Translations under genes and position numbers: made by a program | Origin: Candidatus Udaeobacter sp. | GTDB taxonomy: Bacteria > Verrucomicrobiota > Verrucomicrobiia > Chthoniobacterales > UBA10450 | DNA length: 64,000 bases | Direction of reading: 5' to 3' | Assembly (NCBI GenBank): GCA_035652195.1 | Contig: DASREH010000135.1 | Location: 31,151-95,150 of the forward strand | Shown here: positions 21,987 to 61,791 of the stretch, in pieces | Layout: each line of letters begins with the position of its first letter | Numbering within the stretch: the stretch's first letter is position 1 | Notes under the pieces: generated by a model | What the model was told of the DNA's origin: nothing | Seen by the model: the letters and a program-made list of their open reading frames with translations, nothing else | Databases searched by the model: none

Positions 21987-21988
21987 GC

Positions 21989-22933: not shown

Positions 22934-22936
22934 AAA

Positions 22937-25386: not shown

Positions 25387-25396
25387 CAAGATCGAC

Positions 25397-30247: not shown

Positions 30248-30249
30248 CG

Positions 30250-34957: not shown

Positions 34958-35329
34958 TCAGCTCACTTCGAGCACGCGATTCATTGTGCCGTATTCATTG
35001 CAGACGCAGCCATCTCGTCCATCATACACTTGGTCCGGGCCTGGTTCGCAAGACCATTGTCCGTCAATAATGAATTTCCATTCGTAGCGCCCCGTCGCGA
35101 GAGGAAGGGAAATCGACCAGTTGCCCTCGGCGTCGCGCACCAACGGTGTCGCGTCGGGTTGCCAGCCGTTGAAGGTGCCGGCCAGGAATACACTCTGAAC
35201 GTGCGGCGCATTGCAACTGAATTTAACCGGTTTGAGATTTTCCGGCGTTGGATTTGTTTCTGGCGTGGAGTTCATAGAAGCATCTTTCGGTTTTCTTTTT
35301 CGTTTCACGGATTCTTTTTGAAAAATCAC
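34958..35329 (-). CDS. CBM48/early-set (glycogen-binding-like) beta-sandwich domain protein
   Basis: VKFSCNAPHVQSVFLAGTFNGWQ...GRYEWKFIIDGQW is the AMPK-beta/isoamylase N-domain pattern. A GTG at 35329 overlaps the upstream stop, and an alternative ATG lies at 35275. Confidence 0.6.
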   Translation of the reverse strand: MIFQKESVKRKRKPKDASMNSTPETNPTPENLKPVKFSCNAPHVQSVFLAGTFNGWQPDATPLVRDAEGNWSISLPLATGRYEWKFIIDGQWSCEPGPDQVYDGRDGCVCNEYGTMNRVLEVS

Positions 35330-42409: not shown

Positions 42410-45400
42410 GCAGTCGCCGCACTCTCGGCTAACTCTCGTGGCGTTGGACTCGGCGCGAGCCCCGCTCTCACGCCCCGCGCGCGCCAGATGTAATAAAGCG
42501 CGGGGAAGACGACCAGCTCCATGATCACGGAAGTAACCACGCCGCCAATCATCGGCGTGGCGATGCGTTTCATCACATCCGCGCCCGCGCCGTGACTCCA
42601 CATGATGGGCAACAATCCGGCAATGATAACGGCGCCGGTCATGGCTTTGGGACGAACGCGCTTGACGGCACCGTGATAAATCGCGTCGCGCAGATCGGCC
42701 AGGCTGCGCATCGATCCCTTTCTGCGCCACTCGTCGTAGGCAAGATCGAGATAAAGGAGCATGACCACGCCGGTTTCCGCACTGATGCCGGCGAGCGCGA
42801 TCAGTCCAATCCAGACCGCCACACTCAGGTTGTAATGCAGCCAATAAAGCATCCAGACCGAGCCGACGAGCGCGAACGGCACCGCCAGCAGGACGATCGC
42901 AGTTTTAACGGCCGATTGGGTGTTGAGGTAAATGATCAACACTATGATCAGCAGCGTGAGAGGCACCACCACCATGAGCCGCTGCTGGGCCCGCAGCATG
43001 TATTCGTATTGGCCGCTCCAAAAAATGTTGTAGCCGTTCGGCAATTTGATCGTGCCTTTGCTCACGGCGTCGGCGACAACGCGACGCGCCATCTCGACAT
43101 AAGTGCCGATGTCGATGTTCTTGACATCGACGTAAATCCACGCGTTAGGCACAGCGGCTTCGCTTTTGATTCCCATCGGCGCGCGCACGGTCTTGATCTC
43201 GGCAAGCTGACCGAGCGGAATTTGCGCGCCGGTCGGCGTGGGCACAATGATCTCGCGCAAGGCGTCGAGGTTCTCTCGAAAATCGCGATCGTAGCGCAGG
43301 TTGACTGTGTAGCGTTCGAGTCCTTCGACGGTTGTCGTGAGAGGCATCCCGCCGAGCGCGACTTCGAGCACGTCCTGCACATCGCCGACGACAAGGCCGT
43401 AACGTGCAATCTCATCGCGGTTGATGTGAAACTCGATGTAGTTGCCGCCCATGACGCGCTCAGCAAAAACGCTCGACGTGCCCGGCACCTGGCGCACGAC
43501 CGCTTCGATCTCGGCGGCAACGCGTTCCAACTCCGCCAGGTTCGGGCCGGCGACTTTGATGCCGACGGGCGTTTTGATGCCGGTAGCCAACATGTCGATC
43601 CTCGTTTTGATCGGCATCGTCCAGGCATTGCTTAGCCCGGGAATTTGAATGGCGGCGTTCATCGCATCGACCAGTTCATCCGGAGTGCGGCGGCGATGCG
43701 CGATCACTTTTCCGGCCGCGTTTTTGATGTCCACCTTCGGCCATTCTTTCTCGTCTTTGAGCTGGATTGTCGTCTCGACCATGTCGAACGGCGCGGGATC
43801 GGTGGCGGACTCGGCCCGCCCGATCTTGCCGAAGACGTGATGCACCTCCGGGAACGTTTTGATCATTTTGTCGGTTTGCTGAATCACTTCCCGCGCTTTT
43901 GTCGGCGAGATGCCGGGGAAAGTCGTCGGCATGTAAAGGAGGTCGCCTTCGTAAAGCGGCGGCATGAATTCGCTGCCCAGCCGTTTGTAAGGAAACCAGG
44001 TAATGATGAGAAGCGCCGCCGCCGCGCCAACGACGATCCAGCGCCAGCGAATCACGAAATCGATCACCGGATGGTAAAGCCAGATGAGCGCGCGGTTAAT
44101 CGGATTTTTTTCTTCGGCCAGAATTTTGCCGCGAATGAAATAGCCCATCAGCACAGGCGCGAGCGTGATGGAGAGCAGCGCGGCCGCGGCCATCGAGTAG
44201 GTTTTGGTAAAAGCGAGCGGCTTAAACAATCGGCCTTCCTGCGCCTGCAAGGTGAAGACCGGGACAAATGAGACGGTGATCACGAGCAGCGAGTAAAAGA
44301 GCGTCGGCCCAACTTCGACCGATGCGTCGCGGATGATTTGCCAATGCGGTTTTTTGCCGGTGTCGCGCTCGATGTGTTTGTGCGCGTTCTCGATCATGAT
44401 GATGACCGCGTCCACCATCGCGCCGATAGCGATGGCGATGCCGCCGAGCGACATGATGTTTGAGCTGATGCCCTGCTTGAACATGATCACGAAAGAAATC
44501 AGAACCGCGATCGGCAGGATGAGGATGGCCACGAGCGCGCTGCGCAGGTGCAGCAGGAACGCGATGCAAACGAGCGCGACCACGATGCTTTCCTCGACCA
44601 GCTTTTCCTCGAGCGTCGCCACCGCGCGATCGATCAGCGCCGTGCGATCGTAGGCAATGGTGTAGCTGACATCCGATGGCAATCCTTTCATCGCTTCATC
44701 GAGCCGCTTCTTCACGTCTTTGATCACCTGACGCGCGTTCGCGCCGTAACGCACCACCACGATTCCGCCCGCCGTTTCGCCTTCGCCGTTCAATTCCGCG
44801 ATACCGCGCCGCATGTCGGGACCAAGCTGCACGTTGGCCACTTCCCGGAGCAGGATCGGGACGCCGCCTTCGCCGACGCCGACCGTAACTTTTTTCAAGT
44901 CCTCAATGTCCTGCACATAACCGCGCACGCGCAGAATGAACTCCTTCTCCGCCATTTCGATCGAGCGCCCGCCGACCTCGCCGTTGCTGCGGCGCACAGC
45001 CATTTCGACATCGCGGATCGACAAGTTGTAAGCGCGCAGTTTTGTCGGATCGACAGTAACCTGGTATTGTTTTACGAAGCCACCGATGCTTGCGACTTCG
45101 GAGACACCTTCTACCGACGCAAGCTGGTAACGAAGATACCAATCCTGCATCGAACGAAGCTCGGCCAGGCTGCGCTGCTTTGAGTTGAGCGAATACATGA
45201 ATGCCCAGCCGACGCCGGTCGCATCAGGGCCGAGGGTCGGCGTGACTTTTTCCGGCAGGCGGGAACTGAGTCCGCTCAAATATTCGAGCACGCGGCTCCG
45301 TGCCCAGTAAGGATCGGTTCCGTCCTCGAAGATGACATAGACAAACGAGAACCCGTAGAACGAATAACCGCGCACGACCTTCGCGCGCGGGACAGAGAGC

Positions 45401-45618
45401 ATCTTGGTGGTGATCGGATAAGTCACCTGGTCCTGCACGATTTGCGGCGCCTGGCCCGACCATTCGGTGTAAATAATCACCTGGGTGTCGGAGAGGTCAG
45501 GAATCGCGTCGAGCGGGATGTTGCGTAGCGCATAAACTCCGGCGAGCACAAGCCCGATCGTGGCAAAGAGGACGATGAATTTGTTCTTGAGCGAGAAATC
45601 GATGATGGCTTTGAGCAT
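42406..45618 (-). CDS. cusA: CusA-type heavy-metal efflux RND permease
   Basis: 1070 aa. The TM4 motif is LGGIAIAIGAMVDAVIIMIENAHK. Confidence 0.95.
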   Translation of the reverse strand: MLKAIIDFSLKNKFIVLFATIGLVLAGVYALRNIPLDAIPDLSDTQVIIYTEWSGQAPQIVQDQVTYPITTKMLSVPRAKVVRGYSFYGFSFVYVIFEDGTDPYWARSRVLEYLSGLSSRLPEKVTPTLGPDATGVGWAFMYSLNSKQRSLAELRSMQDWYLRYQLASVEGVSEVASIGGFVKQYQVTVDPTKLRAYNLSIRDVEMAVRRSNGEVGGRSIEMAEKEFILRVRGYVQDIEDLKKVTVGVGEGGVPILLREVANVQLGPDMRRGIAELNGEGETAGGIVVVRYGANARQVIKDVKKRLDEAMKGLPSDVSYTIAYDRTALIDRAVATLEEKLVEESIVVALVCIAFLLHLRSALVAILILPIAVLISFVIMFKQGISSNIMSLGGIAIAIGAMVDAVIIMIENAHKHIERDTGKKPHWQIIRDASVEVGPTLFYSLLVITVSFVPVFTLQAQEGRLFKPLAFTKTYSMAAAALLSITLAPVLMGYFIRGKILAEEKNPINRALIWLYHPVIDFVIRWRWIVVGAAAALLIITWFPYKRLGSEFMPPLYEGDLLYMPTTFPGISPTKAREVIQQTDKMIKTFPEVHHVFGKIGRAESATDPAPFDMVETTIQLKDEKEWPKVDIKNAAGKVIAHRRRTPDELVDAMNAAIQIPGLSNAWTMPIKTRIDMLATGIKTPVGIKVAGPNLAELERVAAEIEAVVRQVPGTSSVFAERVMGGNYIEFHINRDEIARYGLVVGDVQDVLEVALGGMPLTTTVEGLERYTVNLRYDRDFRENLDALREIIVPTPTGAQIPLGQLAEIKTVRAPMGIKSEAAVPNAWIYVDVKNIDIGTYVEMARRVVADAVSKGTIKLPNGYNIFWSGQYEYMLRAQQRLMVVVPLTLLIIVLIIYLNTQSAVKTAIVLLAVPFALVGSVWMLYWLHYNLSVAVWIGLIALAGISAETGVVMLLYLDLAYDEWRRKGSMRSLADLRDAIYHGAVKRVRPKAMTGAVIIAGLLPIMWSHGAGADVMKRIATPMIGGVVTSVIMELVVFPALYYIWRARGVRAGLAPSPTPRELAESAATA

Positions 45619-45622
45619 TGGA

Positions 45623-47116
45623 TCAGTGCTGGTGTTCGCTCTTCGGGGGCTCGGGCGCGGCAGCTGCCGACGATTCGTTAGGCTTCGGGATCAGCGTCAT
45701 CCCGCAGATAGGGCATTTGCCCGGGTGCTCGTATTCAATCGAAGCATGCTCCGGCATCGGGCAGATGTAAGTGGATGATGGCTGGGGCGTAGGCGCGATT
45801 GCTTCAGGTTTTTCTTTCGCTTCGTGTCCTGCGTGCGTTTCTGTTTGCGGCGACATTTTGTGTCCTGTGTGCTCGCTGGGTTTTGCAAGCGCCGTCGGCT
45901 CGATCATTTTCTGAATCGCTTCCCGAAGCTGGCTTTCGGAATCGAGCATGAACTGGCCGCTCGTGACCACTCGCTCGCCTTCATTCAAACCGCTCAACAC
46001 CTGATAGAGATTGTTTTCCGAGCGCGGGCCGAGCGTAACCGTGCGCGGCTCGAACTTGCCGCCTTCGAGCGCCACGAAGACGGTTGTTTTCGCGCCGCTG
46101 CGCAAGATCGCGGTGTCAGGGACAAGCAGTGTCGAAGGCTCCAGCTCCGCTTCCAGTTCCACCGTCGCGAACATTCCCGGCTTAAGGAACAAACCGGGAT
46201 TGTGAAACTCCATTCGCACCTGCGCCGTGCGCGTCTTTTCATCAACAGTGGGATAAACGTAAGTGACGCGGCCGCGAAACTTCCGATCGGGCAAATAGGA
46301 AAGTGTGGCGACTGCTTCCTGGCCCAGCCGCACATAGGCGAGGTCTTGCTCGTAAATCTGCGATTGCAGCCAGACGATCGACAAATCAGCCAGCCGGTAG
46401 AGTTTCATGCCGGCTTCGACCATCTGGCCTTCCACGGCCATTTTCTCCAGCACTACGCCGTCGGCCGGCACTTTGACTTGCAACGTTTTGGTGCCTTTGC
46501 GGGTCTTTTCCAGCTCGGCAATTTGTTCGTCGGAAATGTCGAAATATTTGAGTCGCGTGAGCGCGCTCTGCTTCAAGTTTGCCGGGCCTTTGAGCGCGAG
46601 CAGGTACTCATTTTGCGCGCTGTAAAGATCGGGCGAGTAAATGTCGAAGAGCGGCTCGCCCTTTTTCACTTCCTTGCCGGTGGCATCGACATAGAGCTTC
46701 TCGATCCAGCCTTTGAATTTCGTGGTCACATCGGTCAACGCTGTCTCGTTAGGCTGGATGCGCCCCACGGTGCGCACGATGCGGCGCAGCGGCCCGCGCG
46801 TGACGGTACCGATGCGAACTCCCATGTTTTGGACCGTGACCGGATCGATGGAAATAATTGAGGTGTCGCCTGCCTCATCTTCATACACCGGCACCATGTC
46901 CATTCCCATGCTGTCCTTTTGCGGCGTCAGGCTGATCTGGCCAAGCATCATGGTGGACTTGTAGTATTTGATCTTGCGGCTGCCCTGCGCCTTGCCCGCA
47001 GCGGGAGAACCTGCCGCTGGACTGCGCGTTGGCTTTTTGCTCGCGAAATAAATCCCTGTCCCTCCACCGATGAGAGCGATGAGTGCCAGGACGATGACCA
47101 GTTTCTTGCGTTTCAT
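45623..47116 (-). CDS. cusB: RND periplasmic adaptor (CusB-like) with a C-terminal heavy-metal-binding domain
   Basis: 497 aa with an HlyD-like core. The C-terminus carries YICPMPEHASIEYEHPGKCPICGMTLIPK. Confidence 0.92.
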   Translation of the reverse strand: MKRKKLVIVLALIALIGGGTGIYFASKKPTRSPAAGSPAAGKAQGSRKIKYYKSTMMLGQISLTPQKDSMGMDMVPVYEDEAGDTSIISIDPVTVQNMGVRIGTVTRGPLRRIVRTVGRIQPNETALTDVTTKFKGWIEKLYVDATGKEVKKGEPLFDIYSPDLYSAQNEYLLALKGPANLKQSALTRLKYFDISDEQIAELEKTRKGTKTLQVKVPADGVVLEKMAVEGQMVEAGMKLYRLADLSIVWLQSQIYEQDLAYVRLGQEAVATLSYLPDRKFRGRVTYVYPTVDEKTRTAQVRMEFHNPGLFLKPGMFATVELEAELEPSTLLVPDTAILRSGAKTTVFVALEGGKFEPRTVTLGPRSENNLYQVLSGLNEGERVVTSGQFMLDSESQLREAIQKMIEPTALAKPSEHTGHKMSPQTETHAGHEAKEKPEAIAPTPQPSSTYICPMPEHASIEYEHPGKCPICGMTLIPKPNESSAAAAPEPPKSEHQH

Positions 47117-47118
47117 GC

Positions 47119-48414
47119 CTACTTAGTGGTTTTTTTTAAATCTTTGACCGTGGCGGCGCGCGCGCCGGAGAGTGGCGCGGCGGGATCGACGCCGATGATC
47201 GCGCGCAATTCGGCAATGGCAGTTTGGTGCTCGGCGAGGTTGTTCAGCGCGGCGGATTGCGCATCAAAAAAGTTGCGCCGCGCAGTGATCAGGTCCAGAA
47301 AGCTGCTCTTGTCCGATTCATAGCCGGCACGAGTTGCTTCGACGGCTTGCTTTGACAGCGGGACGATTTTGTTTTGAAACAGGGCGTAGTTGCTCGCGGC
47401 GGTGTCGATCCGCTGGAGCTGGCTCCGCACCAAGCCCAGCACCTCGACGCGAGCGCCTTCGAGATCGCGCTGCGCTTGCTCGACTCCGTTACGTGCTTCC
47501 GATACCCCGGCAGAGTACTTTCGAAAATTGACCCACGGCACGTTGAAGAAAACGCCCGTATCGTATTCCTGAATTACGCTGCTGGAGTCTTTGAACTCAC
47601 GCGCTCTGATTTGAACCTGAGGATCGGGAAACCATTGCCGGTGCGCGAGTTGAAGCCGGGCTTTGCCGGCATCCACCATTTTTCGCGCCTGCAACACTTC
47701 CGGCCGGCTCGCCAGCGAAAGCATCTCGACGGCTTGCGGCGACAACTCCAGCCCTCTGAACACAATTGCCGGCGGATGTGCGAGCGTCGCCGACGCAGGC
47801 CGGTCCATCAGCACGTTAAGTTCAGCCTGGCGGATGGTGATCTCCCGATCGAGGTTCGCCTCCGTTTCGCTCAGCCTTGCCAGGTCAGTCTGCGCGAGCA
47901 GAACGTCGGACTGGGTCTGCAAGCCCGCCTCGTATTTGACGCGGCTGATCTCAGCGAACTGCCGGAGCAACTCCTGATTTTCGTGCGTGATGTCGAGTTG
48001 CGCATACGCGTTGGCGAGGGCGAACCACGCCGTGCGCGCGCGCCGCAGCGCATCCAGTTCTGCCCGCCGCAATTCTTCAAACGCGGCTTCGGCCTCCGCG
48101 CTTGCTATGCGCCCGCGGCTCAAGTTTTTGCCGGATACGGGCACACTTTGAACGATCATGTATTCCACGTCGGAAAACGTTGCAAAACGTGTCGTGCCTG
48201 CGCGCTGAAAATCCGTACCAACCAGCGGGTCGTCCCAGGCGCGTTCCTGCGGCACGCGCTGCCGCCTGGCCTGCCATCTGGCGCGGGCGGCCTTGATTAC
48301 CGGATTATCACGCAGAACAGTGTTGACCACTTCGCTTTCTGAAAGCGTGTCGGCGACCGAGAAAACTGGGGCGCCGAGCAGTCCGGTCAGCGCAACCATG
48401 AGAATTCGCTTCAT
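47119..48414 (-). CDS. cusC: TolC-family outer membrane factor
   Basis: 431 aa with a signal peptide and OEP repeats. Its start overlaps the YHS gene stop (ATGA). Confidence 0.9.
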   Translation of the reverse strand: MKRILMVALTGLLGAPVFSVADTLSESEVVNTVLRDNPVIKAARARWQARRQRVPQERAWDDPLVGTDFQRAGTTRFATFSDVEYMIVQSVPVSGKNLSRGRIASAEAEAAFEELRRAELDALRRARTAWFALANAYAQLDITHENQELLRQFAEISRVKYEAGLQTQSDVLLAQTDLARLSETEANLDREITIRQAELNVLMDRPASATLAHPPAIVFRGLELSPQAVEMLSLASRPEVLQARKMVDAGKARLQLAHRQWFPDPQVQIRAREFKDSSSVIQEYDTGVFFNVPWVNFRKYSAGVSEARNGVEQAQRDLEGARVEVLGLVRSQLQRIDTAASNYALFQNKIVPLSKQAVEATRAGYESDKSSFLDLITARRNFFDAQSAALNNLAEHQTAIAELRAIIGVDPAAPLSGARAATVKDLKKTTK

Positions 48415-49016: not shown

Positions 49017-49415
49017 CTACATACCTTTCGTCTTTTCGCCCGGATGGGTTGAGCAGCAGAACATCGACTTCGACCCGCACTTCGAACACGTGTGCGTGTA
49101 AGGGCCGCGAAAACCGACTCGACGATGCGAATACTGGTAGCTGCCGCCGCAGCCGGGACAGAGATGCTTTTTGTCCGGCTCGAACCAGGACATGAAGCCT
49201 TTCTTCTTGTCCACTTCCGCGACCTGCACAGTTTTGCACTTGATGCAGGTCATTGCGATTTTCGTTCCGGGTTTCAGTCCCTGCGCTTGCTCCCAGCTGG
49301 TGACTGGGATGTCGAAGTTCCAGCTACCCGATATTCCGGCGCGCGCTTGAATCGGGAGCGAGCAAAGTGCTGCTACTGCAAGCGCGAAGACTATCGATTT
49401 AATATGTGATTTCAT
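49017..49415 (-). CDS. Secreted Cys-rich protein (CxxC-knuckle family, paralog C)
   Basis: It has a signal peptide (ALAVAALCSLPIQARA). The Cys pattern is CIKC...CPGCGG...HTCSKCGS...CC, the same spacing logic as 38649-39503. Confidence 0.6.
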   Translation of the reverse strand: MKSHIKSIVFALAVAALCSLPIQARAGISGSWNFDIPVTSWEQAQGLKPGTKIAMTCIKCKTVQVAEVDKKKGFMSWFEPDKKHLCPGCGGSYQYSHRRVGFRGPYTHTCSKCGSKSMFCCSTHPGEKTKGM

Positions 49416-49765: not shown

Positions 49766-50761
49766 CTAACTGATGGGATACGTCGACAGCGCACGCGTGT
49801 ACTGGGCGCGCTCGAATGCGGTGGGGTTCGGGCAGTTTTTCTGACTCATGATGCCTTTGATTTGCTCCACCGATTCGTATTCGTGTTCTTCCATCCATTC
49901 CCGCATCTCGCGTTCGATCACGCGAATGTGATGGATACCGCGCCGCAGCAGGACTGAGCAAAGCATCGTGACATCCGCGCCCGCCATCAGCATTTTCAAC
50001 GCATCTGTGGCGTGATGAATACCGCTGGTCGCAGCCAGGTTTGCGCCAATCCGGCCATACAAAAGTGCAATCCACCGCATCGGCAGCCGCATCGCCATGG
50101 GCGTGCTGAGAAGCAGGTTGGGGCTGACCTCGAGCGTTTCCAGTTCGATGTCCGGCTGGTAAAAGCGGTTGAACAACACCAGCGCATTGGCGCCGTTTTG
50201 ATCGAGGCGCCGCGCAAATCGGGAAAGATTCGTGAAAAATGGGCTGAGCTTCACCGCCACCGGGATTTTCAACAGCCCTTTTATTGACGCGACAATCGTG
50301 AAGTAATCAGTCTCAATCTCGTCAGCTGTACGATCTGGATCGGTCGGCACCGCATAGATGTTCAGCTCGAGCGCATCCGCGCCAGCTTGTTCAATTTGGC
50401 GGGCGTACCGCTGCCAGCCGCCAAAGGTTGAGCCGTTCAGACTGCCGATGATTGGAATACGGACCGAAGCTTTTGCCTTCGCGATATGGCTGACATATGC
50501 CTCGGCGTTCACCTTGAAGACCGGCTCATCGGAAAAATTGGTGAGCGCGTCGGACGAAAATTGCCCGCCATTTCCAGAACGACGGCGCACCGGATAACTG
50601 CCTGGGCGAAGTTGTTCTTCAAAAAGCGAATGGAAGACCACGGCCGACGCACCGGCGTCTTCCATCCGCTTAATATTATCGAGATTTTCCGAAAGCGGTG
50701 ACGCCGACGGCACGAGCGGCGTCCGCAGTTTAAAGCCGAGATATGTAGTGGCCAATTTCAT
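49766..50761 (-). CDS. Dihydroorotate dehydrogenase-like (class 1 DHOD/DHPD family) TIM-barrel flavoprotein
   Basis: The start was reset to MKLATTYLGFKLRTPLVPSASPL. IGSLNG and LELNIY are consistent with the family. 331 aa. Confidence 0.85.
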   Translation of the reverse strand: MKLATTYLGFKLRTPLVPSASPLSENLDNIKRMEDAGASAVVFHSLFEEQLRPGSYPVRRRSGNGGQFSSDALTNFSDEPVFKVNAEAYVSHIAKAKASVRIPIIGSLNGSTFGGWQRYARQIEQAGADALELNIYAVPTDPDRTADEIETDYFTIVASIKGLLKIPVAVKLSPFFTNLSRFARRLDQNGANALVLFNRFYQPDIELETLEVSPNLLLSTPMAMRLPMRWIALLYGRIGANLAATSGIHHATDALKMLMAGADVTMLCSVLLRRGIHHIRVIEREMREWMEEHEYESVEQIKGIMSQKNCPNPTAFERAQYTRALSTYPIS

Positions 50762-51126
50762 GGGATTGCCTCCAGTGCTGATGGTAAAAGCATTCTTATT
50801 GCCGAAATCATAGCCGGCCCTCGCGTGCGGCGATGTACCGCGATTGCTTTTTACTATGCAGTTATTGCAGTAGCTAAAACGGACGATGAGCAAGCGTAGC
50901 TACGCTGCAATCAGCGACGCGCGGCCATGATAATCGAGGGTGCAGGGTGACTCTGGTTGAAATTCTGAGAAACCGTTGCTGGATAATGCCGCAAAACAAT
51001 TAAACGACGATCGTGATCTTTTCTGATCAACGAATCAGGGGTGCACAATTTTTGCAAAGAAAAAGCCAACCGATGTGGAGCACCTCATTTCGGGATTCGT
51101 AGCCTGAATATGTGAAAGGAGTAGTT

Positions 51127-51509: not shown

Positions 51510-52406
51510 TTGCCATTCGTGAAGCTTGGCAACAAGCAGCTTGTCGAAAAGCTCACTCGATCCGCGATTTATCGCGATTATGTGCGCGCCTTCTCTGCGG
51601 CAACCGGTATGCCACTGGCACTGCGAGCAGTCGAACATTGGCAGCCGGCTTTGAAGGGCGTGCCGGACGAAAATCCATTTTGCGAATTGATGGCGCGTTC
51701 GAATCGTGTTTGTGCTGCGTGTCTTGAAGTGCAGCGGAAGCTTACTGAAAAAACCGGAGACCGTTCGCGCACGGTGACCTGCTTCGCCGGACTTTCCGAT
51801 AGCGCCGTGCCGATTCGGGTGGGCGACCAATTGATCGGCTTTTTGCAAACCGGGCAGGTCCTGCTCAAACAACCGGACAAGTTTCGGTTTGATCGCGTAG
51901 CGAAACAATTGGTTAACTGGGGAGTAGAAGTTGATCTGAGCAAAGCGCGTGAAGCTTACTTTCACACCAAGGTACTGACGAAGAAGCAATACCGGGCGAT
52001 GTTGCGGCTGCTCGAAATCTTCGGGCGACACCTCTCAATCCTGAGCAATCAGCTCGCAGTCGAAAATTCAAGCGCCGAGCCGCTGGCAGTCACGCGCGCG
52101 AAACAGTTCATTGCTCGAAATCAGGACAACGCGATCTGCCTGGCCACCGTCGCGAAAGCAGTGAATACAAGCACATTTTACTTTTGCAAACTCTTCAAGC
52201 GCGCGACCGGCCTCACCTTAACCGATTACCTCGCCCGGGTGCGAATCGAGAAAGCCAAGAACCTGCTGCTTGATCGGAATCGTCGCATCAGCGAGGTCGC
52301 CTACGATGTCGGTTTCCAATCGCTCACGCATTTCAATCGCGTTTTTCGGAAGATCGTCGGTGCATCGCCCAGCAGCTATCGCCAATCATCTTCCAAGCTT
52401 GCATAG
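51510..52406 (+). CDS. AraC-family transcriptional regulator with an N-terminal PocR sensory domain
   Basis: FCELMARSNRVCAACLEVQ...CFAGLSDSAVPIRVGDQLIGFLQTGQV is the PocR pattern. The C-terminus has an HTH_AraC region (ISEVAYDVGFQSLTHFNRVFRK). The TTG start is uncertain. Confidence 0.85.
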   Translation: MPFVKLGNKQLVEKLTRSAIYRDYVRAFSAATGMPLALRAVEHWQPALKGVPDENPFCELMARSNRVCAACLEVQRKLTEKTGDRSRTVTCFAGLSDSAVPIRVGDQLIGFLQTGQVLLKQPDKFRFDRVAKQLVNWGVEVDLSKAREAYFHTKVLTKKQYRAMLRLLEIFGRHLSILSNQLAVENSSAEPLAVTRAKQFIARNQDNAICLATVAKAVNTSTFYFCKLFKRATGLTLTDYLARVRIEKAKNLLLDRNRRISEVAYDVGFQSLTHFNRVFRKIVGASPSSYRQSSSKLA

Positions 52407-52424: not shown

Positions 52425-53564
52425 ATGAGCGCGAAAGATCACATCTTTACCATTGGGATCGAGGAGGAATTTCAGATCCTTGACCCGGAGACGCGGGAAC
52501 TTCGTTCGCATATCCAACAAATTCTGGCCGGCGGTAAAATGATTTTGAAGGAACACGTCAAGCCAGAGATGCATCAATCCGTCGTTGAGCTTGGCACGGA
52601 GATCTGCAACGACGCGCGCTGCGCGAGACAACAAGTTGTCGACCTTCGAAGCGAGCTGGCCAGGCTCGCAGCGCAAGATGGATTAAGAATCGCCTCCGCT
52701 GGCACCCATCCATTTTCGCATTGGATGGATCAACTGATCACGCTGGATGAACGCTACGCAACCATCGTGAAAGACATGCAACAAATCGCGCGGGCGAATT
52801 TGATCTTCGGCTTACACGTGCACGTGGGAATTCCAGATCGCGACGAAGCGATCGACATCATGAACCAGGCTCGCTATTTCTTGCCGCACCTTTACGCGCT
52901 CTCGGTCAATTCGCCGTTCTGGTTAGGCCAAAACACTGGGCTGAAAGCATATCGGCAGATGATCTTCGAGCGCTTCCCACGCACCGGTATTCCCGACGCA
53001 TTCGAAAGCCTCAGCGAGTACGAAGATTACCTGAAGCTGCTCGTGGCCACCGGTTGCATCGACAACGCAAAAAAAATCTGGTGGGACATCCGGCTCCATC
53101 CCTTCTTCAACACCATCGAGTTCCGCATTTGCGACGCGCAATCGCGCGTGGACGACACCATCGCGCTGGCTGCTTTGATGCAAGCGATCGTCCTGAAATT
53201 GCACAAGCTACGGCGGCAGAACGTTACTTTTCGCAGTTATCCACGTCGTTTAGTCGACGAAAACAAGTGGCGTGCTGCGCGCTACGGACTGGATGGGAAA
53301 TTGATCGACTTTGGCCGCAAGTGCGAAATGGATGAACGCGAATTGCTCCACGAAATGCTGGACTTTATCGCCACGGAAGTGGAGGAGCTGGGCAGCCACG
53401 CAGAAGTGGCGCACATCGAGAACATCATACGCGAAGGCACGGGCGCGGACCGACAACTCATGGTGTGGGAACGCACTCAAGATATGAAGGCCGTCGTTGA
53501 TCAAATCATCGCGGAAACAAACGAAGGCTTGGCGCAGCTGTGCGAGGGGCACGCAACGACGTGA
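52425..53564 (+). CDS. ybdK: Carboxylate-amine ligase, YbdK / glutamate-cysteine ligase family 2
   Basis: 379 aa. Contains FTIGIEEEFQILD, GTHPF and HVHVG, which are hallmarks of GCS2. Confidence 0.9.
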   Translation: MSAKDHIFTIGIEEEFQILDPETRELRSHIQQILAGGKMILKEHVKPEMHQSVVELGTEICNDARCARQQVVDLRSELARLAAQDGLRIASAGTHPFSHWMDQLITLDERYATIVKDMQQIARANLIFGLHVHVGIPDRDEAIDIMNQARYFLPHLYALSVNSPFWLGQNTGLKAYRQMIFERFPRTGIPDAFESLSEYEDYLKLLVATGCIDNAKKIWWDIRLHPFFNTIEFRICDAQSRVDDTIALAALMQAIVLKLHKLRRQNVTFRSYPRRLVDENKWRAARYGLDGKLIDFGRKCEMDERELLHEMLDFIATEVEELGSHAEVAHIENIIREGTGADRQLMVWERTQDMKAVVDQIIAETNEGLAQLCEGHATT

Positions 53565-53773: not shown

Positions 53774-54076
53774 TTAGTTACTACTCTTCAGGAACTCAAG
53801 GATCTTTTTGTACTCGTCGGCGGTGAGGTTAGCGCGCACGCGCATGTGCTGCATCGCTACTCCCCATTCGGCATCGCTGTAAATTGAAGGCGAGCGCATG
53901 TTGTGACAGCGCGCACAATTTTCGCCCCAAAGTTGCGCACCACCCTTTGCCAGCGGTGCAACTTCTGCCGTTGCTTGTCCGCCCGGTTTTTCGCTTGTCT
54001 TACAACTGACAATGACAATGAGAGCAGGGACAACTAACAGGGCCGTCGTTTGAGCAATTCTTTTCATGCGTGTCAT
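53774..54076 (-). CDS. Small monoheme c-type cytochrome (lipoprotein-like)
   Basis: The start was reset to MTRMKRIAQTTALLVVPALIVIVSC. It has one CxxCH (CARCH) and a distal Met candidate. Confidence 0.72.
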   Translation of the reverse strand: MTRMKRIAQTTALLVVPALIVIVSCKTSEKPGGQATAEVAPLAKGGAQLWGENCARCHNMRSPSIYSDAEWGVAMQHMRVRANLTADEYKKILEFLKSSN

Positions 54077-54089
54077 AGTTGGGTCCTTT

Positions 54090-55481
54090 TTAGAATCCCA
54101 TCGCCGCTTGGAGGAGAAACGCGTTAGCATCTTCCCAATCGCTGCCAGTAGGTTTACGATCGCCCCATTCATACGCAGCTTTGATAACCGTGCTGCCGCC
54201 CAGCCAATAGTTAAGGCCGAGGGTCCAGCGGCGCTCGTCGAATGCGCCGGGCGCGTTAGAGGGCGAGTCGAGTCTGTCATATCGGCCGACAAGCTCAAGT
54301 TTATCGATGACTGGGACTTTCAGTTTGGAAGGCCGATACGCGAGCTGCACATAGCCGCCATTACGATGATTGCTAAAAGTAACTGGGCCGAAGCCCATGG
54401 AACCATCGGGATCATAGGTAAGCCGGCTCACTTGTGACCAAGCCCACTCACCGAGTACGTTAATGCCTCCCTTTAGCCAATCGATGTCTCGCGTGTAGCT
54501 AAGATCGACAGCCTGCAAGAGCACGCTCGCATCATGGGACGAAGTTCCACTTGCATCAACGCGCGCGTACTGAATCCCATAACCGGCCTCCAGTTCCGGC
54601 AAAATCCGCACGCCAACTCGTCCGCCCACAGCCTTGTTGTCGTTCGTATCGGTAAAGTTTTCGAAGTTGAGTGACCCTGCGTCATCTGCGCCGGTGTTCA
54701 GACGCGGACCATTCGAAACATAAGCAGCATACAAGAGAGTGACCGGCCCGATTGGAATGCCGCCGCGAACTTCTGCGCCGACTTCGGAAAATGGCAGCAG
54801 TCCGTCTTCTTCCCCGACTGCGAGTGGTTGATCCGGCAGCTTATTGATCCAGGCCGCGTGGAAACGCTCGCCGAAAATGTTCGATGGCGATAGAAACTTT
54901 CCTGCCCCGATGGTGATATAATCGTTGAGGAAATAGACAAGTTGCGCGTATTCCAAGTTTAATTCCGTCTCGTTGTCATTGAGCTCTAGCTCCAGTTCGC
55001 TCTCAAAGAAAAGTCGGTCGCTTAGCTGCCACAAAAAGATTGGCGATAGCCCGGCGCTAAAGGTGGACTTTTCACCATGTCGATCTTCAAAGCCTGCAAA
55101 ACCGTAACCGGTGAGCAGAAAATGAGTAGTGCCCGGCCTCGAGCTCTCGGCTGTTTCTTTAACCTTGGCTAATTGATCGCGGAGCTCATCAATCTCATTC
55201 TGAGACGTTGTCGTACTAACAACTTGTTTTCCATCCGACGGTTCTTTGTTAGGCGCGGGACCTTCCGCGGGTGCTGTCGCCTCCTGCTTCTTAATGAGCT
55301 CGGCCATTTGCACCTTGAGCGCCTCCATCTCGCCCTTCAGTTTGTCATATTCCTCGCGCGAGACGTACTTGTCCGGCGGCGGAGAGGAGTCCGGCGACGG
55401 CGAGGATTGTGGCTCTTGTGAATAAAGGGGCGCGCTGCCGATAACCAAAAGCGCGGCAACCAGGTGAATCGGCTTTTTCAT
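54090..55481 (-). CDS. Outer-membrane beta-barrel (porin-like) with an N-terminal coiled-coil
   Basis: It has a signal peptide and coiled-coil segments (EEYDKLKGEMEALKVQMAELIKK). Alternating beta-strand patterns follow, and the C-terminus ...LLQAAMGF ends in Phe. Confidence 0.7.
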   Translation of the reverse strand: MKKPIHLVAALLVIGSAPLYSQEPQSSPSPDSSPPPDKYVSREEYDKLKGEMEALKVQMAELIKKQEATAPAEGPAPNKEPSDGKQVVSTTTSQNEIDELRDQLAKVKETAESSRPGTTHFLLTGYGFAGFEDRHGEKSTFSAGLSPIFLWQLSDRLFFESELELELNDNETELNLEYAQLVYFLNDYITIGAGKFLSPSNIFGERFHAAWINKLPDQPLAVGEEDGLLPFSEVGAEVRGGIPIGPVTLLYAAYVSNGPRLNTGADDAGSLNFENFTDTNDNKAVGGRVGVRILPELEAGYGIQYARVDASGTSSHDASVLLQAVDLSYTRDIDWLKGGINVLGEWAWSQVSRLTYDPDGSMGFGPVTFSNHRNGGYVQLAYRPSKLKVPVIDKLELVGRYDRLDSPSNAPGAFDERRWTLGLNYWLGGSTVIKAAYEWGDRKPTGSDWEDANAFLLQAAMGF

Positions 55482-55488
55482 CACGCCT

Positions 55489-55869
55489 CTATTTGAGTGT
55501 CCGCATGTAGTTCACGACGTCCCAGCGTTGCTGCTCACTGAGTTTAGTGGCATACGAGGCCATTGGTTTTTTCCCTTCCGTAACTTTCCAGAACAAGGCG
55601 CCGTCGGTTTGTCCGCCAAGTTTCGTAAGATCGCCCGCCGGTACTTCCAAATCCTTCGCGGCCGGGCCATCTCCCTTGCCACCGCTGCCGTGGCACGACG
55701 CGCACTCGGCGGTATAAACAGCTTTGCCGCGGCCTGAAGAAGCTGCGTCGGCTTTGACAGGATTCTTCTTTGCGGACGCGCGTGCTGGCGCGACCCACTT
55801 TTCTTGCGCTCCCATTATTACGGCAACCACTCCCGCGGCAGCGGCGATGACTAACAATGTGCATTTCAT
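55489..55869 (-). CDS. Class I monoheme cytochrome c
   Basis: The start was reset to MKCTLLVIAAAAG (ATG at 55869, overlapping the upstream stop). Contains CASCHGSGGKGDG and a downstream Met ligand region (KKPMASY). Confidence 0.85.
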   Translation of the reverse strand: MKCTLLVIAAAAGVVAVIMGAQEKWVAPARASAKKNPVKADAASSGRGKAVYTAECASCHGSGGKGDGPAAKDLEVPAGDLTKLGGQTDGALFWKVTEGKKPMASYATKLSEQQRWDVVNYMRTLK

Positions 55870-56462
55870 GTTTTTGCTCCTTGTTTGATTTTGATGATTT
55901 GACTGACAACGAAAGCGTAACTCCCCCAGACGGCGACGAGAATTCCGGTAACGGCGGCGAGGAGGAGGAACGGTGCCCGCGGCGCCCACAATGCCCGCGG
56001 CACATGCCCCTGTTCCTGGAGAATCTTGACGTCGCCTTTGAGCGTGAACTGCGCGTCGATGATCTGCGGTGCTGTGGGCGCGGGCGCGGCCGCTGGCTCC
56101 GCCGGTGTGGCCGGCGCGGCTACGTCAGTGCTTGCTTTCACTTCGCCGGCAGAAGCTTCAGGCAACGTTGCCTGGGCAAGGATTTTCAATTCCCCCCCGG
56201 GCCCGCTTGGCAACCCTTCGGGAGCGGCGATAGCGGCCGATCCATCTTCAAGTGTTTTATCTTCGCCAATCGCTAACTTTCCAAAACTCCGCTGCACGTA
56301 AAACGAAACCGTGATGCCCTCTAGCGGCTTGCCATCGCGGGTCACGGTGGCAACGATCATTTTCTTGTTGTCTTCTACGTCAGTTTTCAGGGTCAGCGAG
56401 GGCGCGGCCGGGAGCGCGCTGCTTACCATTAACAATAAAAGGATTGGACTTATGATGCGCAT
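55866..56462 (-). CDS. Periplasmic beta-sandwich-like protein with a C-terminal TM anchor
   Basis: The start was reset to MRIISPILLLLMVSSALPA. An Ala/Pro-rich linker precedes the C-terminal helix FLLLAAVTGILVAVWGSYAFVV. Confidence 0.5.
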   Translation of the reverse strand: MRIISPILLLLMVSSALPAAPSLTLKTDVEDNKKMIVATVTRDGKPLEGITVSFYVQRSFGKLAIGEDKTLEDGSAAIAAPEGLPSGPGGELKILAQATLPEASAGEVKASTDVAAPATPAEPAAAPAPTAPQIIDAQFTLKGDVKILQEQGHVPRALWAPRAPFLLLAAVTGILVAVWGSYAFVVSQIIKIKQGAKT

Positions 56463-57808
56463 GCTATCGCCTCCGGTTGTCCGCGGCTTTCGCTCACTGC
56501 AATCGCACCCGGCGTTTCCGCTACTTCCCAAATCGAGACGATTGGAAAAATTTTCGAGAAGATGATGTAGAAAAGACAGGAAGCGGCAAACGCGCTCACC
56601 GTGATCGTCCATTCAACCCATGTTGGAATATAAACCAGGTGCGAACCGTGGACCGTTGAGGGCGGCATGAAAGGCGAGCCAAGCGTCGGGACGACGATCA
56701 CGTAGCGTTTCAACCACATTCCGACGTTGACCAGAATCGATGCCGTGATGATTCCTTTGACGTTGCGAAACGGAGGCAACACCAGGATGAGGGCGGGCAG
56801 GAACAAACCGATGATCGCCATGGTCCAAAACTCGATCGCGTAGGGGCCGCTAAAGATGGAAGAGAGCAGGTGTTGCTCGGCGCCGCCCGTATAGCCGGGC
56901 CCAAGGTATTCGTTGATGACAAAATACATGTAGGCAAAACACGAACCGAGAAGGAGAAGCGAGAGCTTCTTGAAATGATCGACTGTGATGTATTTCTCGA
57001 GATGAAACATCCAGCGAAAGAGCGCCATCACCGTCAGGACCGCTGCAATGCCTGAGTAAAGCGCGCCGACGACGAAATCCGGCCCAATGATCGTGCTGTG
57101 CCAGCCGGGACGCAGCGTCGTGCCGAAGAGCCACGCCGTTACGGTGTGGATCGACACCGCGACTGGAATTAAGACAATCGCGAGCACTGCGACTGCGCGC
57201 TCCAGCACGCGGTGTTGCTCGGGCGAACCACGCCAGCCCGCGGCAAGCTTCGTGTAGAGCCAGCGGCGCCAGCGCGAAAACTTCGTGGGGTGGTCACGCA
57301 GGATGGCGAGGTCAGGAATCAACGGCAGATATAGATAGAGTACGCTCCCGGCGAGATACGTCGTCAGCGACATCACATCCCAAATAATCGGCGATTGAAA
57401 ACGGCCATAGACGAAGACCTTCCAAAGCCGATCCGGTCGCCCCATATCTACGACAATCATGGCCGCGGCCAGCAGCAGCGCTATGACTGTAATTCCCTCC
57501 GCCATGCGCGTGATCGGCCTTCGCCATTGTGCGCCCGTGAGTCGTAGAATCGCTGAGATCAACGTTCCGGCCATGCTGATCCCGATGAAGAAAACAAAAT
57601 CGACAATGTAAATGCCCCACGAGAAATAATCCGTCATCGCAGTGACGGCCAGTCCGCGTCTCAGTTGATGCACCCAGGCTAAAGCGCCCGCCAGAACCAC
57701 TGCACCCAAAGCGCCAAGCACGATTTTTAGCCGGCGCGACATCGGCCCGAGCGTGCCGATGAGTTGCATTTCGATTTCTGCTTTCGTGTTGGCGTCTTGT
57801 TCAGCCAT
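56450..57808 (-). CDS. NrfD/PsrC-family polytopic quinone-interacting membrane subunit
   Basis: 452 aa with about 10 TM helices. FSWGIYIVDFVFFIGISMAGTLISA is typical of NrfD/ActC/DsrP proteins. Confidence 0.88.
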   Translation of the reverse strand: MAEQDANTKAEIEMQLIGTLGPMSRRLKIVLGALGAVVLAGALAWVHQLRRGLAVTAMTDYFSWGIYIVDFVFFIGISMAGTLISAILRLTGAQWRRPITRMAEGITVIALLLAAAMIVVDMGRPDRLWKVFVYGRFQSPIIWDVMSLTTYLAGSVLYLYLPLIPDLAILRDHPTKFSRWRRWLYTKLAAGWRGSPEQHRVLERAVAVLAIVLIPVAVSIHTVTAWLFGTTLRPGWHSTIIGPDFVVGALYSGIAAVLTVMALFRWMFHLEKYITVDHFKKLSLLLLGSCFAYMYFVINEYLGPGYTGGAEQHLLSSIFSGPYAIEFWTMAIIGLFLPALILVLPPFRNVKGIITASILVNVGMWLKRYVIVVPTLGSPFMPPSTVHGSHLVYIPTWVEWTITVSAFAASCLFYIIFSKIFPIVSIWEVAETPGAIAVSESRGQPEAIACAS

Positions 57809-58685
57809 GGATAGTTGCTTGGTTCGGCGCCGGATACATCCGGTCTTTGGGCGGCAAATAATAAACGCGCGGCTTTGTCCCCAGTTCCTCCATGTGCCGG
57901 TAACCGGCGCGATCTTTCAGCAACTTCGAAAGTCGCAAAGTCTCGCCGAGGCCGCTTGTGACCGCATCCTCGTTTTCATCGCCGTAGTAGATTGCGCCCA
58001 TCGGGCAGACAAAGGCGCACGCCGGAAGTTTTCCAGCCGCCGCCATGTCGGGACAAAAATCGCACTTTTCCACCGTGCCGACTTTTCTGGGATAACCACG
58101 CTCCGGAGAATACTGCTGTGATTTCTCCGCGGCTGGCTCTTCGGTCAACTCCCAGTTGAAGCTGCGGACATTGTACGGACACGCGGCCATACAGAGCCGG
58201 CAGCCGATGCAACGATCGTTGTCGATCAACACGACGCCGTCCTGGCGTTTGAAAGTTGCATCGACCGGGCAAACTTTCGTGCACGGCGGATTGTCACATT
58301 GGTAACAAGGTTGCGGGAAATAATATGGCGCGGTATTCTCGGAATCTTTAATCCGCAACACCTTGATCCACTCCCGCGTCGGCGGGATGAAGTGCATTTT
58401 CGAGCACGCCTCCGAACATTTGCCGCAGCCGTCGCACTTGGCCAAATCGATCGCCATGATCCATCGGCGGCCGGGAATGCCGACGCGCGCAGCGTCCCCT
58501 GTCAGCGCGTGCGTTGCTTTCATCGCTTCGGCATGAGTCTCGGCGGCGCCTGCCTTTTGGATCAAAACGCCACCGAACGCGACCGCACCCGCGGCCATCG
58601 CGGCGGAGCGCACAAACTGTCGTCGAGATAAACACGAACAACTGTGTTCATCGCAACCTTGCAGAGTCGGTGATGGCATGTGCAC
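57801..58685 (-). CDS. Tat-exported 4x[4Fe-4S] ferredoxin subunit (NrfC/DmsB/PsrB-like)
   Basis: Tat motif SRRQFVRSAAMAAGAVAF. Four Cys clusters are present: CDGCGKCSEAC, CYQCDNPPC, CIGCRLCMAACP and CDFC...CAFVCP. An alternative ATG lies at 58679. Confidence 0.9.
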   Translation of the reverse strand: MHMPSPTLQGCDEHSCSCLSRRQFVRSAAMAAGAVAFGGVLIQKAGAAETHAEAMKATHALTGDAARVGIPGRRWIMAIDLAKCDGCGKCSEACSKMHFIPPTREWIKVLRIKDSENTAPYYFPQPCYQCDNPPCTKVCPVDATFKRQDGVVLIDNDRCIGCRLCMAACPYNVRSFNWELTEEPAAEKSQQYSPERGYPRKVGTVEKCDFCPDMAAAGKLPACAFVCPMGAIYYGDENEDAVTSGLGETLRLSKLLKDRAGYRHMEELGTKPRVYYLPPKDRMYPAPNQATIHG

Positions 58686-61291: not shown

Positions 61292-61594
61292 TCACCTGTC
61301 GATGTGCGCGGCCATCTCGGCATTCATCGCTTTGCGTTGCTCGAGCAGTTTGTTTATGACCGCAACAATCGCATCGATCCGCTTTTCGCCAGTAGCACTG
61401 TTCATCTGGGCGAGGAGCTTTTCAATTTCGGTATCCTGCGCCTTCTGTTGTTCTATTATTTTCGCATGAACCGGCATCATCTCGCGATGCTTCTGCTGAT
61501 TCATTCCCTGCATTCCGCCCGAATCTTGGGCGAACACCGTCGCGCTCTGAAGCGCGACGGCCAATGCGGCTGCCACTATGTATCTTACTTTCAT
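61292..61594 (-). CDS. Small secreted helical protein, Met/Gln-rich N-terminus
   Basis: The start was reset to MKVRYIVAAALAVALQSATVFAQ. It is followed by DSGGMQGMNQQKHREMMPVH and a helical tail. Confidence 0.45.
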   Translation of the reverse strand: MKVRYIVAAALAVALQSATVFAQDSGGMQGMNQQKHREMMPVHAKIIEQQKAQDTEIEKLLAQMNSATGEKRIDAIVAVINKLLEQRKAMNAEMAAHIDR

Positions 61595-61791
61595 GTTGGT
61601 GTCTCCGGTTATGATTCGCGGCACGTTGTCGCGTTCTTTTCACCACCCAAATTGCAAGGAAATTCCGCGGGTTGCTCCGCGTTTCTTCGGAAAGAACGCG
61701 CAATATTTCGCATCCAATTTAGCGCACAGTCTGGATCAACCAGCAAAAGCACTAGTCGATCACAGTTCCGCAACAGACCTCGTGCGGACGA

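Follow-up and report, generated by a model that had tools for sequence, protein, structure and literature searches.

A widespread cytochrome-porin gene cassette joined to a putative truncated alternative complex III in a predicted metal-resistance island of Candidatus Udaeobacter sp.

The outer-membrane protein Cyc2 has been described as a 16-strand OprO/P-like porin with one haem, and its cytochrome domain is proposed to sit at the periplasmic mouth of the porin (PMC8406198). The alternative complex III (ACIII) is a quinol:cytochrome c/HiPIP oxidoreductase made of the subunits ActA to ActF (PMC8076601). Here we report on a 64,000-nucleotide stretch of DNA from Candidatus Udaeobacter sp. (assembly GCA_035652195.1, contig DASREH010000135.1, positions 31,151 to 95,150), referred to as the window, in which a six-gene operon on the minus strand (53774-58685) encodes an outer-membrane beta-barrel between two monohaem cytochromes c, together with an NrfD-type membrane module. 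By analogy, the system would resemble a Cyc2 divided into separate proteins and attached to a minimal ACIII, and we put at roughly 0.5 the probability that the six genes form a two-part electron route that crosses the envelope and links menaquinone to a metal ion at the porin. The cassette of cytochrome, porin and cytochrome is widespread but uncharacterised; no description of it or of the operon was found in the literature searched, and PMC10732223 describes ordinary ACIII-type clusters, not the present operon.

According to the open reading frame (ORF) table of the window, the operon consists of six tightly packed ORFs, which encode, from the upstream end, an iron-sulfur (FeS) protein (57801-58685, 294 aa), an NrfD protein (56450-57808, 452 aa), an anchored protein that we denote g3 (55866-56462, 198 aa), a first cytochrome, cytA (55489-55869, 126 aa), the barrel (54090-55484, 464 aa) and a second cytochrome, cytB (53774-54076, 100 aa). 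The FeS and NrfD genes overlap by 8 nt (57801-57808), NrfD and g3 by 13 nt (56450-56462), and g3 and cytA by the 4 nt ATGA (55866-55869); cytA is separated from the barrel by 4 nt and the barrel from cytB by 13 nt, within which an AAGGA ribosome-binding site lies. The first-pass annotation of the window, made from the letters and the ORF list, had given exactly these genes, coordinates, overlaps and gaps, and the kinds of product that it named (an FeS protein, an NrfD-like subunit, an anchored beta-sandwich, two cytochromes c and a barrel) were borne out by our family scans and models. The same holds for its remark that no catalytic molybdopterin or multihaem subunit is present, as neither kind of gene was found within the operon in the ORF table or the family scans. 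The operon is preceded by a TauE gene after an 88-nt gap and followed by a GCS2 gene on the opposite strand. TauE was rejected as an operon member, being kept only in the closest relative, locus L084, at 88-210 nt. Scans of the operon for promoters and terminators gave nothing informative.

The six-gene arrangement is far beyond chance, since it recurs in 16 of the 18 evaluable metagenome loci with an NrfD of 57% or higher identity to that of the window, all with the full order FeS-NrfD-g3-cytA-barrel-cytB; it was also met in nine loci examined one by one, among them L084. The conservation is yet broader for the barrel and its two cytochromes. A scan with the barrel profile, taking one genome per species, gave 80 loci, mostly from Verrucomicrobiota, including the abundant soil groups Udaeobacter and Chthoniobacterales, but also from Planctomycetota (including the isolate ZRK34), Methylomirabilota, Bdellovibrionota, Gammaproteobacteria, Nitrosomonas and Thermoanaerobaculia. 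When the ORFs of these loci were searched with the six window proteins, a cytB homologue was found directly downstream of the barrel in 75/76 evaluable loci, and a cytA homologue directly upstream of the barrel, or fused to it, in 65/72. This synteny, which the first-pass annotation had proposed to examine, marks barrel, cytB and cytA as a selected unit.

True fusions of cytA to the barrel through a linker or coiled coil were identified in four proteins (P0033, P0036, P0040 and P0081), and an N-terminal CxxCH, indicating a natural fusion of this kind, is present in 17 of the 120 full-length cluster representatives listed (about 14%). Even distant relatives, at 29% identity, keep the theme of porin plus cytochrome. 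On plasmid pKD02 of Alteromonas macleodii (L087), a distant porin is followed by a cytochrome c beside CopC/CopD, while plasmid NZ_CP082853.1 of Legionella anisa (L088, 6528-10714) encodes a 758-aa protein with three class I cytochrome c domains and a barrel, annotated just as 'c-type cytochrome', with two further genes for c-type cytochromes behind it. When 1.84 billion representatives were searched exhaustively, the barrel family proved to have 2,563 members at E <=1e-3 and 530 at E <=1e-30, counted as clusters at 50% identity (about 2,500). The evolutionary unit is thus cytA-barrel-cytB, an old mobile cassette that has been plugged into different electron partners.

These partners were counted in the 44 loci with at least 3 kb of sequence upstream of the cassette. 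A plastocyanin-family cupredoxin stands directly before cytA in 12 of them, DoxX is present in 6, NrfCD in 5, and a second cupredoxin-like protein, with a C-x2-H-x2-M motif and a CarboxypepD_reg domain, in 2; the remaining 19 have none of these upstream. All recognised partners (NrfCD, DoxX, and plastocyanin-type and amicyanin-like cupredoxins) are electron-transfer proteins. The link of the barrel and cytochromes to an NrfCD core, as drawn in the first-pass annotation, is therefore true of the window, but NrfCD is only one of several interchangeable partners. Seen from the other side, NrfD relatives of 48-56% identity have FeS-NrfD(+g3)-cytA without the barrel, or joined to multihaem cytochromes, and the barrel was found in only 1 of 27. 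Two loci without the barrel (L131 and L161) carry FeS-NrfD+g3-cytA followed by 468- and 552-aa unannotated proteins of one family (G6, no Pfam match) and then DoxX; this pair may be an alternative outer-membrane partner.

The window barrel is 93% identical to that of L084, with 83% for NrfD. After L084, its closest genome homologues are those of L004 (64%) and L005 (62%), and the barrels of the other NrfCD-type operons are only 28-53% identical to it. Because L004, which has no NrfCD, carries a nearer barrel than most NrfCD-type operons, reshuffling between the cassette and its partner modules is suggested. L004 is also one of seven loci, of Chthoniobacterales/Udaeobacter type, at which a larger recurrent cluster surrounds the cassette, in the order cupredoxin-like protein with CarboxypepD_reg, sigma-54 sensor kinase, a second beta-barrel of 405 aa, response regulator, plastocyanin-type cupredoxin, cytA, barrel and cytB, often with a small membrane protein, a Tat-exported ferritin-like protein, an NHL-repeat protein and a LolA-like protein downstream.

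The barrel was modelled with AlphaFold2 from an alignment of 61 sequences (model confidence, pLDDT, 83). In the model, a signal peptide is followed by two helices (43-69 and 95-115), which form a long, coiled-coil-like stalk placed in the periplasm, and by 16 strands over residues 121-463, which answers the question of strand number left by the first-pass annotation. A long loop between strands 5 and 6 (199-232) carries the family-invariant W212 and N214-K-L-P-D218, and an invariant glutamate ladder (E161/E163/E165) is found among the residues predicted to face the lumen. The barrel has no cysteine and no haem motif, and therefore binds no c-type haem itself. Searching the Protein Data Bank (PDB) with Foldseek matched trimeric 16-strand porins at probability 1.0 and 10-14% identity (OmpC, OmpT, OmpM1, DcaP (6EUS), Omp32 and OprO (4RJX)), and the search of PDB sequences with the barrel profile returned spurious coiled-coil matches only. 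Against Pfam, the window barrel scored 16.8 bits with Porin_O_P (PF07396), under the gathering cutoff of 20.9, and its match to Porin_4 was likewise sub-threshold; Porin_O_P weakly matched 47/61 barrel homologues, with a best E of 4e-9. We thus model the barrel as a 16-strand outer-membrane porin that is a distant relative of Porin_O_P and bears a coiled-coil stalk in the periplasm. It shares the 16-strand fold and the weak profile similarity with OprP/OprO, and an N-terminal periplasmic coiled coil with DcaP. Unlike OprP/OprO, it scores below the Pfam gathering threshold, is invariably paired with cytochromes, has the family-specific W-x-N-K-L-P-D loop motif and lies outside any phosphate-regulon context, as no pst/pho or other phosphate-uptake genes were found near the operon in the window.

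The first-pass annotation had also compared the locus to Cyc2, and the 16 strands together with the distant likeness to Porin_O_P make this comparison apt, the likeness being one of fold and of published description. In both cases a 16-strand outer-membrane barrel resembling OprO/OprP works, or here would work, with a single c-type haem; monohaem-barrel fusions occur naturally in the present family, and its cupredoxin and class I cytochrome partners recall the Cyc2-rusticyanin-Cyc1 chain. Unlike Cyc2, the present system is split over three genes, and the window barrel is not one polypeptide with an N-terminal CxxCH domain; cytB, its universal haem partner, is a predicted lipoprotein encoded on its own, the cytochrome fused to the barrel or upstream of it comprises a whole class I domain with a coiled-coil stalk before the barrel, and the context is one of copper and heavy-metal resistance. 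In the porin-cytochrome systems MtrAB/MtrCAB, PioAB/MtoAB and Geobacter Pcc/Ext, too, an outer-membrane barrel is encoded together with c-type cytochromes, both periplasmic ones and lipoproteins, and connects to an inner-membrane module that oxidises quinol, but their 20-26-strand barrels sheathe cytochromes of 8-12 haems, whereas here there are 16 strands, an inward loop and one haem per cytochrome.

CytB is a short protein, with a mature part of about 75-80 aa, a single CxxCH and a weak cytochrome signal around it; it matched no Pfam or NCBIfam family above cutoff, and its homologues bear only annotations such as 'cytochrome c5/c553/hypothetical'. The lipobox of the window protein reads IVSC. 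Among the 120 homologues listed, exactly one CxxCH is present in every one, a lipobox-like motif lies within the first 40 residues in 100, and an H[HQ]M[RK] motif, which could supply a methionine ligand, is found in 83. The residue after the lipid-modified cysteine is commonly R, A, S, Q, T or K, with aspartate not among the common residues at this +2 position. CytB is an orphan one-haem protein and probably a lipoprotein. We infer that it is tethered to the outer membrane and, by analogy with the place proposed for the Cyc2 cytochrome domain, that it is the best candidate for a haem at the periplasmic mouth of the porin.

CytA belongs to the class I monohaem cytochromes c (PF13442/PF00034, E about 1e-14) and begins with a signal or anchor segment; in the alignment of its family the CxxCH is invariant and a KPMP motif is conserved. 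In the PDB it matched cytochrome c552 (9VR0_A, E 8e-19; soluble c552 about 1e-19) better than the ActE subunits of ACIII (6BTM_E, E 2.6e-11; 6F0K_E, E 1.9e-6), and its weak best NCBIfam matches include cytochrome 579 of Leptospirillum. It was seen in three settings: with NrfCD-g3 and no barrel, with the barrel and no NrfCD, and fused to the barrel. Two modules thus meet at cytA, namely FeS-NrfD-g3-cytA of the inner membrane and cytA-barrel-cytB of the outer membrane, and since the former also exists without the barrel, cytA is their shared connector.

In the inner-membrane module, the translated FeS protein has a SRRQFV twin-arginine motif, consistent with export by the twin-arginine translocation (Tat) pathway, and 16 cysteines in four ferredoxin-type motifs. 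Pfam scanning gave Fer4_11 (E 5.5e-20) with a weak TAT_signal match, and in the PDB it matched PsrB (2VPW_B, E 8e-30) and the C-terminal part of ActB (6F0K_B residues 796-992, E 4e-19). It is therefore predicted to be a Tat-exported subunit with four [4Fe-4S] clusters, of the NrfC, PsrB or ActB C-terminal-domain type. The NrfD protein (PF03916, E 4.5e-44) matched only ACIII subunit C chains at E <0.01 when compared to all PDB sequences (6F0K_C, E 3.4e-62 over residues 33-430, then 6BTM_C, 6LOD_C and 8K9E_C), and PsrC was not detected in that search; the profile search returned ActC at E 7e-86 and ActF far more weakly. NrfD is thus an ActC-type membrane subunit with a predicted quinol/quinone site. 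For g3, no match below E 1e-3 was found in Pfam, NCBIfam, PDB sequences or, with Foldseek, known folds; its AlphaFold2 model (pLDDT 83) showed a seven-strand beta-sandwich (residues 22-142) and a C-terminal membrane helix (165-196). In many relatives g3 forms the C-terminal part of a fused NrfD of 640-700 aa, and it is therefore a subunit of the NrfCD module, that is, a single-pass membrane protein with a periplasmic beta-sandwich and an accessory role.

The ActC-type NrfD and the ActE-like cytA make the 'NrfCD core' a truncated relative of ACIII, and the inner-membrane part is best described as a putative truncated ACIII-like quinol:cytochrome c module and not a standard ACIII. In common with ACIII it has the ActC-type NrfD, a Tat-exported FeS protein that aligns to the C-terminal FeS domain of ActB, and a cytA that matches ActE. 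It differs in the absence of the pentahaem ActA, the molybdopterin-like half of ActB, ActD and the second NrfD-like subunit ActF; its FeS protein has 294 aa compared to about 950-1040 aa in ActB, with no molybdopterin domain in the Pfam scan, and its 16 cysteines suggest four [4Fe-4S] clusters, whereas ACIII has one [3Fe-4S] and three [4Fe-4S]. The unrelated beta-sandwich anchor g3 and the coupling to an outer-membrane porin are further differences. DsrOP, NrfCD and PsrBC share the Tat-exported four-cluster ferredoxin with a cofactor-less NrfD-family membrane subunit, and DsrO and DsrP were the best NCBIfam matches of the FeS protein (177.5 bits, cutoff 200) and NrfD (122.6 bits, cutoff 350), but both scores are under their cutoffs and no DsrMKJ, NrfAB or PsrA partners are present here. 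Membership in the DsrOP, Qrc, Nrf, Ttr and Arr systems was rejected, as all NCBIfam scores fell far short of their cutoffs.

By its gene content, the window is a copper/heavy-metal resistance island, dense over 1-48414, which the first-pass annotation had overlooked and which we consider the strongest functional clue. Three resistance-nodulation-division (RND) efflux systems are encoded (4286-10652, 18840-24229 and 42406-48414); the third, on the minus strand, is of the CusCBA heavy-metal type, with ACR_tran (E 1e-219), a CusB-type adaptor (HlyD_D23 and a heavy-metal-binding domain) and OEP, and the first pump bears a C-terminal YtkA-like domain. The window also encodes an HMA-domain P-type ATPase (15446-17797), a DUF1326 and PpoB2 'copper chaperone' pair (24781-26200), CopB (32221-33033), a multicopper oxidase (33040-34938) and a Metal_resist protein (35326-36141), besides a VKOR-SPW fusion (13220-14566) and a TPMT-type methyltransferase.

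Several neighbours of the operon recur beside the cassette elsewhere. A PocR-AraC regulator (51510..52406, plus strand; PocR E 1e-23, HTH_18 E 6e-25) is a candidate regulator of the operon, and its family was found beside the cassette in eleven loci. The GCS2 carboxylate-amine ligase (52425..53564, plus strand; PF04107, E 1.5e-66) recurs in seven loci, and a DHO_dh-like flavoprotein (49766..50893, minus strand; PF01180, E 2.5e-12), which lies downstream of cytB, follows it in five. L084 has HMBD, OEP, multicopper oxidase and TRASH genes nearby, L085 has CzcCB and L002 a multicopper oxidase. Metal or efflux genes were detected in the flanks of 18/61 cassette loci of at least 10 kb, compared to 1/20 NrfD-only loci (Fisher p = 0.019); the probes were window proteins and the control set was small, and the enrichment is suggestive but not decisive, because the RND probe also matches non-metal RND pumps.

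Three co-oriented genes of the window (28668-32208, minus strand) encode a 652-aa protein whose periplasmic N-terminus is rich in Met and His and which has a single membrane helix and, on the cytoplasmic side, FAD/NAD/2Fe-2S domains; a membrane protein of 247 aa and five helices that matches no family; and a c3/c7-like cytochrome, anchored in the membrane, in which there are about seven CxxCH motifs. They look like a second outward transmembrane electron path. On pKD02, about 2 kb downstream of the porin and cytochrome, a 2Fe-2S protein (644 aa), a hypothetical protein (252 aa) and a cytochrome c3 (264 aa) match this trio in annotation and size, and homologues of the 652-aa reductase lie near the cassette in three further loci. 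Two exported window proteins of no family look like candidate periplasmic metal binders, one of 132 aa (49017-49415, minus strand) with CxxC pairs (CIKCK, CPGCGG, CSKCG and CC), whose homologue recurs in a few cassette loci, and one of 110 aa (61292-61624, minus strand) that is Met/His-rich (GGMQGMNQQKHREMMPVH).

In the route that we propose, the ActC-type NrfD would exchange electrons with menaquinol/menaquinone, and these would pass from the quinol over the FeS clusters to cytA and then cytB, or in reverse. CytA would shuttle between the FeS protein and cytB, with the coiled coil as its tether in the fusions, and cytB would be held beside or under the porin, with which it is presumed to associate. 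A redox-active metal ion would then enter or bind at the porin and meet cytB, much as has been proposed for Fe(II) and the haem of Cyc2. Since the operon lies in a copper/heavy-metal island, the substrate is most likely copper, with interconversion of Cu(I) and Cu(II) without oxygen, and iron is the alternative. The homology to ACIII and the probable His/Met haems speak for the direction from menaquinol through FeS and cytA to cytB and an acceptor. A route from the periplasm or outer membrane to the quinone had been suggested in the first-pass annotation; synteny and fusions do tie the barrel functionally to the cytochromes, but the ACIII homology favours flow from quinol to cytochrome. Outward flow could mean the reduction of Cu(II) to Cu(I), which Cus/CopA could export, or of another oxidised metal. 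In the opposite direction, Cu(I) or Fe(II) would be oxidised and the electrons would either reach an oxidase or be driven uphill to the quinone at the expense of the proton-motive force; by analogy, this fits the cupredoxin variants and the likeness to Cyc2 equally well. A bolder version, in which cytA-porin-cytB is an unrecognised, widespread 'split Cyc2' conduit, wired to menaquinone by a minimal ACIII and acting as an oxygen-independent copper oxidoreductase that serves copper resistance by oxidising Cu(I) or reducing Cu(II) at the outer membrane, is tentative and to our mind rather doubtful.

Several observations weigh against the proposed route. The barrel lacks a haem site, and its invariant residues lie on a loop that folds inward as in OmpF, so that it may be a plain solute-specific channel; the residues predicted to face its lumen are mixed in charge (about 16 acidic and 14 basic) with no clear ion selectivity, and a 16-strand lumen cannot sheathe a cytochrome as MtrB does. 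In the natural fusions the cytochrome stands about 100-200 residues from the barrel, including the coiled coil, compared to the close fusion modelled for Cyc2. The conserved methionines suggest His/Met ligation and hence high-potential haems, and if this is true, flow from cytochrome to menaquinone would be uphill and the direction is uncertain. Metal genes adjoin just about 30% of the cassette loci, the linked regulators (PocR-AraC and sigma-54 two-component systems) are not classic copper sensors, and all close relatives are metagenome-assembled genomes.

Two other explanations, each of which we regard as unlikely, account for part of these observations. Perhaps the locus is a Cyc2-like pathway of Fe(II) oxidation, or of Fe(III) reduction, at which Fe(II) diffusing into the porin is oxidised by cytB and the electrons move through cytA, either to a cupredoxin and terminal oxidase or by way of the ACIII-like module to the quinone pool. 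Such a chain would parallel that of Acidithiobacillus, in which electrons pass from Cyc2 to rusticyanin/Cyc1 and then to an oxidase or bc1. The 16-strand, distantly Porin_O_P-like barrel, as reported for Cyc2 (PMC8406198), the natural monohaem-barrel fusions, the cupredoxin directly upstream of cytA in 12/44 genomes, the Tat-exported ferritin-like proteins downstream in several, the weak match of cytA to cytochrome 579 and the report of Cyc2-like genes in Verrucomicrobia metagenome-assembled genomes (PMC6344600) are consistent with iron. On the other hand, the hosts, for the most part heterotrophs of soil and fresh water, are not known as iron oxidisers, the long coiled-coil linker is unlike Cyc2, and the genes around the operon in the window (multicopper oxidase, CopB, Cus-type RND and HMA ATPase) concern copper and soft metals, not iron. 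It could also be that the inner-membrane genes form an ordinary respiratory branch, an ACIII-like menaquinol:cytochrome c oxidoreductase with cytA delivering to terminal oxidases, and that the porin and cytB are co-expressed for a separate role, such as solute uptake, coiled-coil envelope tethering or haem/cytochrome handling, with no redox site at the outer membrane. The ActC-type NrfD and ActE-like cytA would fit this, as would FeS-NrfD-g3-cytA without the barrel in the more distant relatives and a barrel without a haem site, whose fold resembles those of general diffusion porins and of DcaP with its coiled coil; yet it leaves the presence of cytB at the barrel in 75/76 loci and the repeated cytA-barrel fusions unexplained, the cassette is far commoner without the ACIII-like module than with it, and no oxidase genes were found near the operon in the window.

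A redox route for some other substrate of the metal(loid) island, such as selenite/tellurite, Hg, Au, Mn or a PocR-sensed organic redox shuttle admitted by the porin, seems improbable. The TPMT-type methyltransferase and the many soft-metal genes in the window, the PocR-type sensor regulators that recur beside the cassette, the weak match of the cytochrome by the distant Alteromonas porin to ExtS, a cytochrome of the selenite/tellurite operon (E 1.7e-5), and the TauE gene upstream in the window and in L084 all hint at it, but every hint is weak or a single case, and TauE is not conserved in the other NrfCD-type loci. Least credible by far is the view that the barrel is an ordinary phosphate or anion porin adjacent by chance, or that the operon is a fragment of a standard ACIII operon, cases that the first-pass annotation had named as fatal to its proposal. 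The weak similarity to Porin_O_P/Porin_4 and the ActC-type NrfD are what speak for it; the near-universal synteny and the gene fusions rule out a chance neighbour, there are no phosphate-uptake genes nearby, and a standard ACIII locus was rejected since ActA, the molybdopterin-like domain of a full ActB, ActD and ActF are all absent in and beside the operon.

Should the cassette prove to be a redox conduit, the cytochrome-porin principle of the Fe(II) oxidisers would extend to a large unstudied family, which occurs in globally abundant soil and freshwater Verrucomicrobiota and Planctomycetota, and such conduits would be modular, plugging into quinone modules or cupredoxins. Made up of an FeS domain, ActC, an ActE-like cytochrome and a new beta-sandwich subunit, the truncated ACIII is in its own right a candidate for a minimal quinol:cytochrome c oxidoreductase, and it could help to define the essential parts of ACIII. 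If the substrate is copper, the operon would provide a respiratory-chain-linked, oxygen-independent control of periplasmic copper speciation, which would be relevant to microaerobic and anaerobic copper tolerance.

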